From NCBI RefSeq assembly GCF_013122565.1, contig NZ_CP053258.1: a stretch of DNA of 64,000 bases; one strand, 5' to 3'. A program made the position numbers and the translations under genes. The notes under the pieces were generated by a model. The model made no database searches. It worked only from the letters and a program-made list of their open reading frames with translations, and had not been told where the DNA came from. Within the stretch, counting starts at the first letter, position 1. Every line of letters starts with the position of its first letter. The stretch is from Escherichia coli (lineage in GTDB: Bacteria; Pseudomonadota; Gammaproteobacteria; Enterobacterales; Enterobacteriaceae). Below, piece by piece: positions 24,291 to 28,601 of this stretch.

Positions 24291-24812
24291 ATGAAACGTT
24301 TTAGTCTGGCCATTCTGGCGCTGGTTGTTGCGACCGGCGCACAAGCTGCCAGTGAAAAAGTCGAGATGAACCTCGTCACGTCGCAAGGGGTTGGGCAGTC
24401 AATTGGTAGCGTCACCATTACTGAAACCGATAAAGGTCTGGAGTTTTCGCCCGATCTGAAAGCATTACCCCCCGGTGAACATGGCTTCCATATTCATGCC
24501 AAAGGAAGCTGCCAGCCAGCCACCAAAGATGGCAAAGCCAGCGCCGCGGAATCCGCAGGCGGGCATCTTGATCCACAAAATACCGGTAAACATGAAGGGC
24601 CAGAAGGTGCCGGGCATTTAGGCGATCTGCCTGCACTGGTCGTCAATAATGATGGCAAAGCTACCGATGCCGTCATCGCGCCTCGTCTGAAATCACTGGA
24701 TGAAATCAAAGACAAAGCGCTGATGGTCCACGTTGGCGGGGATAACATGTCCGATCAACCTAAACCGCTGGGCGGTGGCGGTGAACGCTATGCCTGTGGT
24801 GTGATTAAGTAA
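24291..24812 (+). CDS. sodC: periplasmic Cu,Zn superoxide dismutase
   Basis: ATG at 24291 preceded by GGAGG; signal peptide MKRFSLAILALVVATGAQA; His-rich Cu/Zn-SOD motifs; 173 aa; ORF-track start at 24240 is an upstream extension. Confidence 0.9.
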   Translation: MKRFSLAILALVVATGAQAASEKVEMNLVTSQGVGQSIGSVTITETDKGLEFSPDLKALPPGEHGFHIHAKGSCQPATKDGKASAAESAGGHLDPQNTGKHEGPEGAGHLGDLPALVVNNDGKATDAVIAPRLKSLDEIKDKALMVHVGGDNMSDQPKPLGGGGERYACGVIK

Positions 24813-26825
24813 TTAAGAGGCCAGCGTACCTTGCGGCGGTGCTTGCTCAAGTTGCGAAAGCGAGCAGTACAGCCGCCAGACAATTGCCGCCAGCTCACGG
24901 GCGGCAGGTTGATGATGACGGGCAAGGCTGTCGCAAATCCGCTGTAATTCTTCAAGTGTGGCCGCCAGTGATTTTTGCTGAACGCCACGCTCACTCATCA
25001 CTCCCCGCAACAGTGAAATACAGTTATCCCGTACTCGCGATAACGGATCGGAACGCGATTCCCAGTCGCGTAATTGCCAGACAACATGAGAACAGTTCAG
25101 CAGCACTACACCCCAGCGTAATAACCAACGGCGAGCCAGCGCATCCTGGCTGTTACTCAACTGACTGACGTGATGATAAGTGAGCGATTCAAATTCGCTT
25201 TCACTCAGTGTTGGATGGCGGCTTAGTTGATCGACAAAATCCCGGCGCAGCGCGCGAATATGGCGGCGGCTTTTGCGAGCATCCGATCCTGGACGCAGAA
25301 TGGCGAACGCTAACCACGCCAACGCGACGCCAACGATTTTTGCCAGATTATCGTTAAGAAAATCAGCAAAATCATACACCGGGGGATTAGTGACAGCGAT
25401 AAAAGAACCCATAAAAACAATCAGTTGCCCCCACAATGCGGCAAATTTGGGCATCTGCAATTTAAGAAGCTGCATTGTCGCCAGCAGTGGAAAGAGAAAC
25501 AGTAAAAATTGCCACAGATCGCTAATCTGGACCATCAGACCAAATTTGACCACAAAGCTGAATAGCGAAAGTAACACCAGCGTGCGCATCAGCAGTGACA
25601 ACGACTTAAACGGTGCTGCGACGGCGGAGTAGAGTACGCAGCTAATTGCTGCCAGCGTTAATGCATTGGCACCGGCATCCCATTGCGAAGCAACACTCCA
25701 TGCGCCAATCATCATCAACGTACAAAATGTACGCAGCCCGCTCCACATAGCTTCGGCGTTATCGGTATGACGAGCCAGGCCGGATATCCGTGGGAGTCTG
25801 GTATGATCATCTACACCGCTTTGCAGACGATGTAATTCCTGACTACTTTGCAGATAAAGGTGGCAAAAATAACGTAGTCGCTGCCAGAAGGCGACGTGCC
25901 GGTAGTCGCCGACGTTGGTCGGGCGTAGCGGGGCGATAATACGTGCGACGGTGTAAACATCTGTTTGCGAACTGGCGAGCGCCGTCAGCAACTGTTCGAG
26001 AATTTCTCGTGTGGCACCTGGCGGTGAGGGCCAGTTGAGCAACATACGTCGCAGGCTGGAGATGACACTGGTCATACGTAATTGCTGGTGGAGCAGCGCA
26101 TTAAGGCGCGCGTTTTGCTGGCGAAAACGATAGTGGCTCCAGAAAGCCTGGATACGCAGCAAATTCATGGTCAGTATCTGCCCAATCACCCCTTCATGTG
26201 CTGCACGAATGGCATCGGTTGTTTCAGGCTGCCAGAGTAAACTGGCATGTTCCAGTAATCGGGCGTGCATGTTTTTCAATGCGGTTAAAAGGGCTGTAGC
26301 ATCGGAACTGCTAGGCAGGATCATCATCATCATGCCGCCGCACAAAATACCGACAATCACCTCGCAAACGCGCGCCTGAGCGATATCCCACAGCTGGCTG
26401 GCCTCAGTAATATTAACCATCGGAAAGGCGATGATGGCAGCCGTGTAGCCCGCCAGTTGAAATGCATACGCGACGTTATTCGTGAAGTGCGCACAGGCCC
26501 AGGTACAAAAGCCAAGCCACGCCGACATGCTCAATAGAAAAAACCACGGCTCATTGAGCGTATGCCCGGCAAGAAGCAGTGCCGCAATGGCTCCCAGTAA
26601 ACTGCCAGCGATGCGTCCGAGGCTTTTGCTGATGACACCGCCAACGGTGGGAAAGCTAACCACTGCAGCCGAGGTCATCGCCCAATAGGGTTCATCCAGA
26701 TTCAAATAATAGGCAACCGTCAGCGCCAGACACATGGCAATGGTATTGCGTAACGCATAACGCCATTGCGCCAGCGTGGCCCTGAACCAGGGCAAATTGC
26801 GCAAGGACCATGACGATGCGTTCAT
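24813..26825 (-). CDS. ydhK: FUSC-family (fusaric-acid-resistance-like) inner membrane efflux protein YdhK
   Basis: ORF track 670 aa; two hydrophobic blocks separated by a soluble domain, AaeB-like; overlaps ydhJ stop by 1 nt. Confidence 0.88.
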
Positions 26826-27682
26826 TATTGACCTACGGCAATGCTACAGGTGGTGCCCGACACCAGCGTGACATCGCCTGGAACTTTATCCAGCGCAAAG
26901 CGGACGGGAACGCGTTGGGCGAGACGAACCCAGGGGACGTTAGGTTTCACATCCGGAATAAGGCTTGAGTCACTTTCAACGCTCTGATCATAAATCGCCC
27001 GACCGATACTGGAAACGTGACCCTGTAACGTTTTGTTATCACTATAGAGGGTAATTTGTGCTGGTGCACCTTCGCGGATATGGCGCAACTTGGTTTCTTC
27101 AAAATAACCAATGACGTAAAACGAGTGGCTGTCGACAAGGGCAAACAGCGGTTTCCCGGTATCAGCGTAATCGCCGATGCGGGTAGTAAGGTTAGTCACC
27201 CATCCACTCACCGGGGCGCGAATTTCCGTTTGCGCCAGTTGCCATTGTGCCTGTTTCAGCGTCGCCTGTGCGGCATCAACACTGGCCTGCATCGCTTTAA
27301 CATTGAGGTTAGCGGTATCGAGTTCTTCGGCAGAAATAAAATTTTGTGAGAGATGACGACGACGATTCGCTTCGTTATTGGCTTTTGCGAGGTCAGATTG
27401 CGCTTTCGCCAGCTGAGCCTGTGCGTTCAGCTCGGCGATCTGAAAGGGCGTTTTATCGATCGTGAGCAGAAGATCCCCCGCGTTAACCAGCTGGTTGTCT
27501 TTTATATTCAGCTCAACAATACGTCCCGACACCTGTGGGGTGATAGAAACCTGTTCTGCGCGTATTTTCCCGTCGCGTGTCCACGGAGATTGCATGTAAT
27601 AATTCCACAGCCACCATCCGGCAAGAACTGCAACTACCGCTACAATGATTGTTGAGAAATACTTAATTGTTTTAATTGACAT
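26825..27682 (-). CDS. ydhJ: HlyD-family membrane fusion protein YdhJ
   Basis: ATG (plus-strand CAT at 27680-27682) gives 285 aa [17 protein letters not shown]...; the ORF-track TTG start at 27724 is an extension; coiled-coil MFP sequence. Confidence 0.85.
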
Positions 27683-27684
27683 AG

Positions 27685-27921
27685 TTACCACGCAATCAGT
27701 ATTGCCATAGCAAGGCAAACGCAAATCGCAAACAGCGATAAATCCATTAACAAGGGATGCCAGATGTCACCGGCGTAGATCCAGCCACGAAGCAGGCGGT
27801 GTACGACAAGCCAGATGACGAATCCAAACGCGAAGGCTTTGAAAAACGGAGGAAAGTAGACGGACGCACCGAACACCAGATCTTGTAAGGGCAATCCTGT
27901 TGCATTGAGCATAAACTTCAC
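27685..27921 (-). CDS. ydhI: DUF1656 small inner membrane protein YdhI
   Basis: ORF track 78 aa; two hydrophobic helices; stop 2 nt upstream of ydhJ start (AaeX-like arrangement). Confidence 0.8.
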
Positions 27922-28093
27922 AAAGTAGATTCCTTTACGACCGAATATATTGCGTTAGATTAATAAATATTCTTTAAGTGCGAAAAATTTACGCGCAATT
28001 TCTGAAAAATATGTCTGACGGTAACCAAATGCAGCAATACATTTGTTTTAGCAATACAATTGCTGCACACTATTCTAAAAGCCGCATAATATC

Positions 28094-28105
28094 TTAGCAA
28101 GCTAA
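28094..28105. promoter_or_regulatory. SlyA-type 12-bp palindrome in slyA-ydhI divergent region
   Basis: Perfect palindrome TTAGCAAGCTAA immediately upstream of the slyA RBS; matches the reported SlyA binding consensus. Confidence 0.7.
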
Positions 28106-28121
28106 TTATAAGGAGATGAAA

Positions 28122-28556
28122 TTGGAATCGCCACTAGGTTCTGATCTGGCACGGTTGGTGCGCATATGGCGTGCTCTGATAGACCATCGCCTGAAACCGC
28201 TGGAGTTAACACAAACCCATTGGGTTACGTTACACAATATCCATCAGTTACCTCCAGACCAGTCGCAAATTCAACTGGCAAAAGCGATTGGCATCGAGCA
28301 GCCATCACTGGTCCGTACTCTGGACCAACTGGAAGAAAAAGGGTTAATTTCGCGTCAAACTTGTGCCAGCGATCGTCGGGCTAAACGTATTAAACTGACG
28401 GAAAAGGCAGAGCCGCTGATCAGCGAAATGGAAGCTGTTATTAACAAAACCCGCGCGGAAATTTTACATGGCATCTCCGCAGAGGAACTGGAACAACTGA
28501 TTACGCTCATCGCAAAACTTGAGCATAATATCATTGAGTTACAGGCCAAAGGGTGA
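28122..28556 (+). CDS. slyA: MarR-family transcriptional regulator SlyA
   Basis: TTG at 28122 is 6 nt after AGGAG (28111-28115), whereas the in-frame ATG at 28116 abuts the RBS; translation (M)[23 protein letters not shown]... 144 aa. Confidence 0.88.
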
Positions 28557-28601
28557 AATGAAGGGGGCGTGTGGTCAGTAACCTGACCACACGCAAACTA
28601 T

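Follow-up and report, generated by a model that had tools for sequence, protein, structure and literature searches.

ydhIJK of Escherichia coli: a probable AaeXAB-like efflux operon with a predicted ALMT-like membrane protein

The system with which ydhIJK most readily compares is AaeXAB. Both follow the order DUF1656 gene, AaeA-type adaptor gene, FUSC gene, with tight junctions and a divergently transcribed regulator gene alongside, and neither encodes an outer-membrane factor; the partner of AaeAB is listed as unknown. The differences lie in the regulator, LysR-type AaeR for aaeXAB and MarR-type SlyA for ydhIJK; in the junctions, which are gaps of 7 and 5 nt in aaeXAB and a 2-nt gap and a 1-nt overlap in ydhIJK; and in the cargo, as the substrates of AaeAB, unlike those of YdhIJK, are defined (PMC12506092). 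Is ydhIJK then simply AaeXAB under another name? It is not, because its products score far under the NCBIfam equivalog cut-offs (21.4 against 82 bits for AaeX, 243.4 against 400 for AaeA and 119.4 against 870 for AaeB); the genuine aaeXAB sits elsewhere in the K-12 chromosome. Identities to AaeX, AaeA and AaeB are 33% (over 51 aa of the K-12 protein), 41% and 24%, respectively: judged by sequence, YdhI, YdhJ and YdhK are paralogues, not orthologues, of the Aae proteins, and it is in this sense that the label AaeXAB-like, given to the operon in an earlier note, holds.

FusCDE-Bucl8 of Burkholderia and FuaABC of Stenotrophomonas likewise combine a FUSC inner-membrane protein with a small DUF protein and an adaptor. 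These systems confer fusaric acid resistance and respond to pHBA, and their operons contain start/stop overlaps; unlike ydhIJK, they have a dedicated outer-membrane lipoprotein, a LysR regulator and the gene order FusC-DUF-adaptor, where ydhIJK has X-A-B. E. coli has another FUSC/PET-family protein, MdtO of MdtNOP, a system with its own outer-membrane factor, MdtP, that is not known to include a DUF1656 gene; the MdtN model gives YdhJ a score of 203 bits.

Ten targeted contig look-ups yielded nine related loci (from the set L003, L004 and L006-L013) for comparison of gene order. The genes for a FUSC protein, an AaeA-type adaptor and a DUF1656 protein lie together even in relatives whose identity falls to about 25%; two gene orders occur, FusC-DUF-adaptor being that of L008. 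Adaptor and DUF1656 genes accompany the FUSC gene in the window (the whole 64-kb stretch of DNA analysed here) and in L003, L004, L006, L008, L009 and L010-L013; in L007, the small DUF1656-type gene was not called. The operon had been described as tripartite, a loose term here: small subunit, adaptor and inner-membrane transporter are present, but no outer-membrane factor gene was found, either inside the operon or in the 3.5-6 kb examined at the nine related loci. The filing of the sister pump's partner as “AaeAB-?”, together with the lack of an encoded outer-membrane factor, counts against an efflux explanation.

Gene layout and junctions

The ORF list and a check of the sequence agree on three intact minus-strand genes at 24813-27921 of the window. 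The promoter-proximal gene, ydhI (27685-27921), starts with GTG, encodes 78 aa and ends with TAA at 27687-27685; ydhJ (26825-27682; ATG at 27682-27680, TAA at 26827-26825) encodes a 285-aa AaeA/EmrA-type membrane-anchored periplasmic adaptor, or membrane fusion protein; and ydhK (24813-26825; ATG at 26825-26823, stop at 24815-24813) a 670-aa FUSC/ArAE (PET) inner-membrane transporter. These are real conserved genes of a core E. coli operon, not chance ORFs, because the 4-kb region is present in 5425 of 5426 complete E. coli genomes, where it is annotated as ydhK, ydhJ, ydhI, slyA and sodC; the three reading frames, all intact, are conserved at a coverage of 80% or more in 5409 of these 5426 genomes.

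Both junctions are tight. On the minus strand, ydhI and ydhJ meet in TAA-CT-ATG (27680-27687), a gap of 2 nt (CT), and ydhJ and ydhK in TAATG (26823-26827), where stop and start have one base in common. The 2-nt gap recurs in L010, L012 and L013 and the 1-nt overlap in L010, L011 and L012; L013 and L003 have a 4-nt ATGA overlap at the latter position. The Shine-Dalgarno energy is -5.6 kcal/mol for ydhI (AAGGA), and the sites of ydhJ (-2.8 kcal/mol) and ydhK (-3.3 kcal/mol) are weak. The operon thus displays the sequence features of translational coupling: stops and starts within a few bases of each other, weak downstream Shine-Dalgarno sites and a geometry that is kept. The layout, the gap and the overlap are all as the earlier note had given them; coupling, which it took the junctions to imply, is better worded as something that we infer. 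The weak Shine-Dalgarno sites inside the operon and a junction geometry kept across genera make it plausible, and translation of ydhJ and ydhK is probably coupled to that of the gene upstream. The retention across genera of both the geometry and the weak internal ribosome-binding sites, which fits coupling, is new in this analysis.

At the far end of the operon, the TAA of plus-strand sodC (24810-24812) abuts the stop of ydhK (24815-24813), so that the convergent stops occupy 24810-24815 with zero intergenic bases. In L010, L011 and L012, the two convergent coding regions share 8-25 nt, and the ydhK-sodC pair has been catalogued as an excludon (PMC12288877).

The three products

A Pfam search for FUSC, HlyD and DUF1656 placed YdhK, YdhJ and YdhI in the families to which the earlier note had assigned them. 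YdhI matches DUF1656 (E 2e-14; 53.7 bits against a cut-off of 26.5) and has two hydrophobic segments by hydropathy, at about residues 21-48 and 58-76, in keeping with its proposed nature as an AaeX-like two-helix membrane protein; FPP and WHPxL motifs are conserved in seven YdhI homologues. In other bacteria, co-fitness of DUF1656-type small subunits with pump genes has been reported. YdhI would be a two-helix inner-membrane accessory subunit that is always encoded together with its pump.

YdhJ matches HlyD_3, HlyD_D23 and Biotin_lipoyl_2, as expected of an HlyD-type membrane fusion protein, and has a single N-terminal hydrophobic anchor by hydropathy. In its AlphaFold2 (AF2) model (pLDDT 81), a transmembrane helix (3-31) precedes an α-hairpin with arms of 32 and 33 residues (78-109/118-150) that is about 48 Å long. 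Pfam matches, AF2 secondary structure and alignment to the AcrA, EmrA and MacA structures together delineate lipoyl, α-hairpin and β-barrel domains; the AaeA-type barrel bears the family motif SPWTRDG plus a second, 11-letter motif. EmrA and AcrA share this architecture and a similar hairpin tip. YdhJ has an N-terminal membrane anchor as EmrA does, and its hairpin, which has the length of AcrA's, is about 45 residues short of EmrA's. The alignment of YdhJ to AcrA 62-198 contains a single gap of one residue, and the hairpin tip falls on the AcrA and EmrA tips. The AcrA-matching hairpin length, which rests on the model, is new in this analysis. In AcrA and MacA, R-x3-L-x6-S is the hairpin-tip motif for docking to the outer-membrane channel. 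R107, L111 and S117 of YdhJ align with AcrA tip residues, presumably R128, L132/133 and S139, with a one-residue deletion, and S117 is invariant in seven AaeA-type adaptors. YdhJ would then be an N-terminally anchored periplasmic adaptor with a hairpin of AcrA length. The MFS and RND transporters of EmrAB and AcrAB differ in fold from YdhK.

YdhK matches Pfam FUSC (PF04632) with an E value of 2e-139 (466.7 bits against a cut-off of 30.9), its residues 20-661 covering profile positions 1-658 of 660, that is, the full length; this match and the 24% identity to AaeB bear out its description as an AaeB-like FUSC protein. It carries the number TC 2.A.85.1.6 (PMC10971958), the FUSC/ArAE (PET) family being TC 2.A.85. 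The AF2 model (pLDDT 92.3, pTM 0.90), in which membrane helices are joined by short loops only, consists of two repeats, in each of which a block of six membrane helices leads into a cytoplasmic helical domain (18-169 and 175-336; 356-509 and 515-661). The repeat is seen only by profile-profile comparison: hhalign matches the N-terminal to the C-terminal half with a probability of 96% (E 3.7e-9, 289 columns), while none is detected by pairwise BLASTP of the two halves (best E 0.19).

What does such a protein resemble? PDB searches returned no solved bacterial FUSC/PET member. By profile and by fold, the only solved structures akin to YdhK are the plant ALMT/QUAC proteins AtALMT1, AtALMT9 and GmALMT12. 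A profile of 74 YdhK family sequences matches ALMTs in the PDB at E values from 6e-10 (ALMT9) to 2e-6; a single-sequence search gives a marginal match to ALMT12 only (E 0.4). In a Foldseek search with the model, the best nine matches are all ALMT1 or ALMT9 at a probability of 1.00, with modest E values (2e-3 to 9e-2), and every non-ALMT fold, MFS included, stays at or below 0.23. A review table files AaeAB under MFS; for YdhK, we reject an MFS assignment on these values (MFS at most 0.23, ALMT 1.00). The motif GxxxSKxxxRxxGT occurs in both YdhK and the ALMTs, as does a conserved arginine located in a later helix; in the family profile, K67, R71 and R152 of YdhK align to identical residues of ALMT9. 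Identity is only 14-17%, and the architectures differ: ALMTs are homodimers of one repeat, YdhK has two diverged repeats per chain, and ALMTs, unlike YdhK, are plant-membrane channels without an adaptor or small subunit. The substrates of ALMTs are organic carboxylate anions. New in this analysis, at the level of a high-confidence model, is that YdhK is an internally duplicated protein whose sole solved relatives are plant ALMT anion channels. Each half of this inner-membrane transporter would fold like one ALMT protomer, so the single chain would resemble an ALMT dimer, with the conserved basic residues K67, R71 and R152 in its membrane helices, where they may have a functional role. The solved relatives of YdhK are channels, not pumps, an observation that counts against active efflux by YdhK.

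Control from the ydhI-slyA intergenic region

ydhIJK would form one transcription unit that is controlled from the divergent ydhI-slyA intergenic region (27922-28115), which spans 194 bp, is 68% A+T and matches that of K-12 MG1655 base for base. On its other side lies slyA (28116-28556, plus strand), which encodes a MarR-family regulator (277 bits against an NCBIfam equivalog cut-off of 120). Its true start is likely TTG 28122, as in the K-12 annotation (144 aa); this codon is favoured because of its Shine-Dalgarno spacing and that annotation. The palindrome that the earlier note had placed between the divergent genes is a perfect SlyA consensus box, TTAGCAAGCTAA (28094-28105, plus strand, 0 mismatches), the sole match with at most one mismatch in the 64-kb window (0.24 expected by chance), and is kept in five of six intergenic sequences aligned across genera. 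Across genera, the region is conserved in its slyA-proximal half and varies in the half next to ydhI. A candidate σ70-like promoter directed toward ydhI (28072-28100, minus strand; TTGCTA-17-TAGAAT, 9/12 consensus matches) is conserved in the alignment and has its -35 hexamer inside the SlyA box. With a divergent slyA and an operator in the common intergenic region, ydhIJK fits the pattern of a MarR-type, locally regulated efflux operon. SlyA bound to the perfect box would overlap the -35 hexamer of this candidate promoter and may occlude it; aromatic carboxylates, such as salicylate, would release SlyA.

Published data bear on this model from several sides. In Salmonella, SlyA directly represses ydhI about 19-fold in vitro, and salicylate relieves this repression (Will et al. 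2019; PMC6401476). E. coli SlyA binds the intergenic region by EMSA, but overproduction of SlyA in K-12 raised ydhIJK 2.2-fold instead of repressing it (PMC5797941). Loss of kvrA in Klebsiella pneumoniae raises YdhJ 45-fold to more than 100-fold, and vanillin raises YdhJ 3.5-fold.

Sigma-E would be a second input. ydhIJK is listed as a σE-dependent transcription unit (PMC7075262; PMC2685091), and its RNA rises about 20-fold on σE induction, with a weak σE initiation response (PMC7075262). A σE-like element, GCACTT-N16-TCTAA (27955-27981, minus strand), precedes the ydhI start by about 35 nt. A σE consensus scan of the window gave six matches where 4.35 are expected, which is not above chance, and other genera show no clear conservation of the element: the reported membership of ydhIJK in the σE regulon rests on the literature, the promoter itself being a candidate.

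Proposed function

ydhIJK is probably a FUSC/ArAE (PET)-type envelope efflux system, a paralogue of AaeXAB, that exports aromatic carboxylates. In E. coli, aromatic carboxylates would be the cargo; transport may draw on membrane potential or the proton motive force rather than ATP (the Pfam search found no ATPase domain in the products), and TolC may serve as the outer-membrane exit. In Salmonella, a ydhIJK deletion mutant grows late in 30 µg/ml fusaric acid and a slyA mutant grows better (PMC6401476). This growth delay at one concentration is the sole phenotype shown (PMC6401476). The earlier note had held the substrate and physiological role not to be established, which is partly outdated: salicylate-relieved SlyA repression and the fusaric acid phenotype are on record, and the literature has thereby gone part of the way toward a defined substrate, in Salmonella (PMC6401476), although in 2025 the same group still described the physiological function as to be determined (PMC12506092).

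Is fusaric acid what the machine is for? The same machine may serve chiefly as a safety valve of metabolism that vents an endogenous aromatic compound, which is possibly the physiological ligand of SlyA, with fusaric acid resistance as a side activity; we consider this a serious possibility that falls somewhat short of probable. A 2025 paper from the Fang lab deems export of an endogenous compound the likelier primary function (PMC12506092), the operon is core in a species that rarely meets fusaric acid, and, according to a review, a leuS mutant that induces the stringent response raises ydhIJK expression. No endogenous substrate of ydhIJK has been found so far, however, ydhK is still listed as uncharacterised in an untargeted metabolomics study (PMC10971958), and the operon has been lost repeatedly in Enterobacteriaceae that retain slyA (PMC6401476). 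A different question is how far the substrate travels. YdhIJK could act at the inner membrane only, YdhJ docking to neither TolC nor another channel and the substrate leaving the periplasm through porins: no outer-membrane factor gene adjoins ydhIJK or the nine related loci, the partner of the sister pump AaeAB is equally elusive, the YdhK model has short inter-helix loops, and the roughly 48-Å hairpin falls well short of the one in EmrA, which serves a transporter that, like YdhK, is not known to have a periplasmic domain. Against this, transport across the inner membrane only would have no need of an adaptor whose conserved hairpin tip resembles those of AcrA and EmrA, which depend on TolC, and the operons of the related Burkholderia FusC systems contain a dedicated outer-membrane component; confinement to the inner membrane seems unlikely to us.

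Still less likely is that the operon is largely silent in E. coli, bound by H-NS and poorly expressed, with SlyA as an anti-silencer rather than a repressor and little contribution under laboratory conditions. The A+T content of the intergenic region would suit silencing, as would one of the letter codes for earlier datasets that Curran et al. give ydhIJK, taken to mean H-NS-associated, the 2.2-fold activation on SlyA overproduction (PMC5797941) and the statement that E. coli slyA is not expressed appropriately (PMC6401476); yet the three frames are intact and conserved in nearly all genomes (5409/5426), YdhJ is detectable as a protein and induced by vanillin, and ydhIJK RNA rises about 20-fold on σE induction (PMC7075262). 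Least probable by far is a role in envelope stress that involves no small-molecule efflux, for example as a regulated anion channel that tunes membrane potential or osmolytes under σE stress. Membership of the σE regulon (PMC2685091; PMC7075262), the ion channels among the solved relatives of YdhK, the loss of viability on ydhK overexpression (PMC2685091) and the mention of both ALMT and fusaric acid resistance in a 2026 preprint on a mycobacterial ion channel all point that way, but the obligatory pairing with a periplasmic adaptor and the Salmonella fusaric acid phenotype argue for export across the envelope, and a MarR-type regulator that senses aromatic acids also suits efflux.

The ALMT kinship invites a bolder proposal that we advance tentatively, with the chances against it: YdhK, AaeB and the bacterial FUSC proteins would be ALMT-like electrogenic anion channels or uniporters rather than proton antiporters, driven by the inside-negative membrane potential, with outflow via YdhJ to an outer-membrane exit; the native cargo would possibly be an endogenous aromatic carboxylate that is also the SlyA ligand.

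The operon, its family assignment, its control by SlyA and a first phenotype are already published, and as a finding ydhIJK adds little beyond that work. With the high-confidence YdhK model and its kinship to ALMTs, mutagenesis has a concrete place to begin, at K67, R71 and R152. The native substrate, the energy coupling of FUSC/PET transporters, the role of the DUF1656 subunit and the outer-membrane partner matter for the tolerance of engineered E. coli to aromatic acids and for the nature of the signal that SlyA perceives; if the channel proposal is true, the FUSC-type pathway would form an envelope-exporter class of its own, distinct in mechanism.

Layout and family placement of ydhIJK

The three minus-strand genes are packed tightly: ydhI (27921..27685; GTG start, 78 aa, TAA stop at 27687-27685) is separated by two nucleotides from ydhJ (27682..26825; ATG start, 285 aa) in the junction TAA, CT, ATG, and the stop codon of ydhJ shares one base with the start codon of ydhK (26825..24813, 670 aa) in TAATG. 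Inspection of the ORFs and junction sequences thus bears out exactly the arrangement described in the earlier note. The 2-nt gap recurs in three related loci (L010, L012, and L013), and the second junction is an overlap of 1 nt in L010, L011, and L012 and of 4 nt in L013 and L003; in more distant loci, gaps of 11-88 nt are found. The ydhI start has a predicted anti-Shine-Dalgarno pairing energy of -5.6 kcal/mol, against -2.8 at ydhJ and -3.3 at ydhK. The weak internal Shine-Dalgarno sequences and the recurring junction geometry are compatible with, though no proof of, coupling by termination and reinitiation.

Of 5426 complete E. coli genomes, all but one carry the 4-kb ydhK-ydhJ-ydhI-slyA-sodC region, annotated under those names (5425 genomes). 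The window itself (1-25000 and 24600-28600 compared) reaches at best 98.9-99.4% identity to any genome of this set, the leading matches including O157:H7 and O55:H7 strains; its source is thus a strain outside the set or a close relative, and may be a Shigella or another Escherichia lineage. The stop codons of sodC (plus strand) and ydhK abut at 24810-24815 with zero intergenic bases, as they do in L013, and the coding regions overlap by 8-25 nt in three enterobacterial loci (L010 5516-5540, L011 5518-5525, and L012 5513-5534); a terminator of either gene must therefore sit within the other. The pair is a listed excludon (PMC12288877). The database also has YdhJ-YdhK fusion proteins, P0002 (845 aa; YdhJ to residue ~236 joined to YdhK from residue ~33) and P0048 (900 aa), and a frequent product beginning at YdhK M136 (P0069, 535 aa, 519 member sequences); these suggest that certain strains carry deletion or disrupted alleles of the operon, or else that genes were called at the ends of contigs.

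Pfam assigns YdhI to DUF1656 (E 2e-14), YdhJ to HlyD_3, HlyD_D23, CusB_dom_1, and Biotin_lipoyl_2, and YdhK to FUSC (E 2e-139, profile positions 1-658 of 660), in agreement with the families proposed from the sequence. The likeness to AaeXAB holds as paralogy: the top NCBIfam models are AaeX, AaeA, and AaeB, all three with scores far under the equivalog cut-offs, and BLASTP identity to the genuine K-12 proteins is 33% over 51 aa for YdhI, 41% over 282 aa for YdhJ, and 24% over 521 aa for YdhK; ydhIJK is therefore an aaeXAB paralogue, a member of the FUSC/ArAE, adaptor, and DUF1656 families distinct from AaeXAB itself. The transporter classification entry for YdhK is TC 2.A.85.1.6, where it figures as uncharacterised.

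The adaptor gene adjoins the FUSC gene in nine of nine related loci (YdhK identity from 86% to ~25%) and a DUF1656 gene is called in eight; the order is DUF1656-adaptor-FUSC or, in L008, FUSC-DUF-adaptor. None of the nine has an outer-membrane factor gene adjacent to the operon. The label "tripartite" does not apply in its strict sense, because the operon encodes no outer-membrane component.

An ALMT-like fold and a short adaptor

The AlphaFold model of YdhK, built from an alignment of 74 full-length family members (19-85% identity to the query), has a mean pLDDT of 92.3 and pTM of 0.90. It is all-helical and falls into two blocks: six membrane helices (18-169) with a cytoplasmic helical domain behind them (175-336), then six more (356-509) with a second such domain (515-661). 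YdhK is an internal duplication: pairwise BLASTP of the halves leaves the repeat undetected, and profile-profile comparison matches them with 96% probability (E 3.7e-9, 289 columns).

Solved-structure matches to YdhK include no bacterial FUSC-family member. Through the first membrane block, the FUSC-family profile matches plant ALMT9 (6.3e-10), ALMT1 (6.8e-7), and GmALMT12/QUAC1 (2.1e-6), and the first nine Foldseek chains are all ALMT1 or ALMT9 at probability 1.00, with modest E-values (2e-3 to 9e-2); other folds, MFS and ABC transporters among them, reach at most 0.23. Because each ALMT chain aligns over ~360-417 columns, about one YdhK half, a single YdhK chain corresponds to an ALMT homodimer. 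This pseudo-dimer is asymmetric, since conservation among the 74 members is concentrated in the first repeat. There, ALMT9 has the same residue at the positions aligned with K67 and R71 (both in helix 61-89) and with R152 (invariant, in helix 142-169); these three are candidate carboxylate-binding or pore residues. The ALMT-FUSC relationship is already known: Pfam has a weak ALMT match on one YdhK relative, and a 2023 ALMT review is said to mention fusaric acid resistance.

The YdhJ model (pLDDT 81, poor at residues 229-254) has a membrane helix (3-31) and a hairpin of helices 78-109 and 118-150, ~48 Å long at 1.5 Å per residue. Its alignment spans AcrA 62-198 with a gap of only one residue, and over the hairpin YdhJ is ~45 residues shorter than EmrA; the tips of both align with the 16-residue tip of YdhJ. 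Among seven AaeA-type adaptors from distant loci, the PWTRD core of SPWTRDG, just after the membrane anchor (residues 32-38, ~27589-27569), is invariant and a C-terminal 11-residue motif (251-261, ~26932-26900) largely so; both are candidate contacts with the FUSC transporter or with the DUF1656 subunit. YdhI and its homologues, seven in the comparison, have in common the motifs FPP and WHPxL, spread over the two helices, and in other bacteria DUF1656 genes show co-fitness with their FUSC and adaptor neighbours.

Control by SlyA

The 194-bp region between the divergent ydhI and slyA genes (68% A+T) is identical to that of K-12 MG1655. The SlyA palindrome noticed there earlier is a perfect consensus box, TTAGCAAGCTAA (28094-28105), the sole match with at most one mismatch in the window (chance expectation 0.24), and it overlaps the -35 hexamer of a candidate sigma-70-like promoter directed toward ydhI (TTGCTA-17-TAGAAT, 28100..28072). 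The block next to slyA hardly varies among E. coli, the enterobacterial locus L010 (possibly Salmonella), Citrobacter, and Enterobacter, and the relative whose YdhK is 62% identical keeps most of it; the half next to ydhI is variable, in agreement with Will et al. (PMC6401476). A candidate sigma-E-like element (GCACTT-N16-TCTAA, 27981..27955) matches a consensus no rarer in the window than chance, and its conservation in other genera is not clear from the intergenic alignment. The longest slyA ORF starts at ATG 28116 (146 aa); the strong Shine-Dalgarno sequence AAGGAG lies directly against this ATG and 6 nt before TTG 28122, a spacing that supports the TTG-start, 144-aa slyA of the K-12 annotation.

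In Salmonella, SlyA represses ydhI transcription ~19-fold in vitro, with relief by 2 mM salicylate (PMC6401476), and repression was confirmed in vivo by the same group in 2025 (PMC12506092); in K. pneumoniae lacking KvrA, the SlyA orthologue, YdhJ rises 45-fold to >100-fold. Binding of SlyA to the intergenic region is also shown for E. coli K-12, but there its overproduction raised ydhIJK 2.2-fold (PMC5797941), so in E. coli SlyA may either repress or activate the operon. The operon is also treated as a sigma-E-dependent unit, with RNA up ~20-fold on sigma-E induction and weak changes in initiation (PMC7075262).

Within the Escherichia/Salmonella cluster, slyA is linked to ydhJ and ydhK at 95-100%; in the other clusters with any linkage the figure is only 26-33%, and the fifth cluster has none (PMC6401476). 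Two loci with YdhK relatives at 50% identity (L004 and L006) have no divergent MarR gene, and a LysR-family gene lies just downstream of the operon in L005 and L006; with LysR downstream in place of the divergent MarR, this more distant lineage has swapped the regulator and retained the three-gene core. In one Klebsiella oxytoca genome, an IS element (DDE transposase gene, L011 1260-2183) between the slyA/kvrA orthologue and ydhI parts the operon from the conserved box.

Transport and its rival readings

What does YdhIJK do? The evidence best supports an aromatic-carboxylate exporter that is gated by SlyA and responds to sigma-E, in which YdhK would be the ALMT-fold inner-membrane transporter, YdhJ a membrane-anchored adaptor, and YdhI a small accessory subunit. 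Since Pfam finds no ATPase domain in the three proteins, export would draw on membrane potential or proton motive force. As its relatives of known structure are anion channels, potential-driven anion uniport by YdhK is a live possibility. A stress channel is one rival reading. The AcrA-like hairpin tip argues that YdhJ docks with TolC or a different channel; the limited reach of the modelled YdhJ and a YdhK predicted to lack a periplasmic domain caution against accepting this readily, and an exporter confined to the inner membrane is a second rival.

The earlier note held that substrate and role were not established. This is half right: a xenobiotic phenotype is published for the orthologous operon of Salmonella, where growth in 30 µg/ml fusaric acid is late in a ydhIJK deletion and improved in a slyA mutant (PMC6401476). 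For the native substrate, the statement stands. YdhJ rises 3.5-fold with vanillin, leuS mutants with reduced ciprofloxacin susceptibility have elevated ydhIJK, according to a review, and ydhK overexpression lowers viability (PMC2685091). Beside the exporter of aromatic carboxylates stand two further rivals, a relief valve for an endogenous compound and a silent operon.

The finding of the earlier note is real and essentially correct in interpretation, and ydhIJK is an annotated, partly characterised, already known E. coli operon. What still makes it worth attention is how FUSC-family proteins transport and what YdhIJK natively carries.
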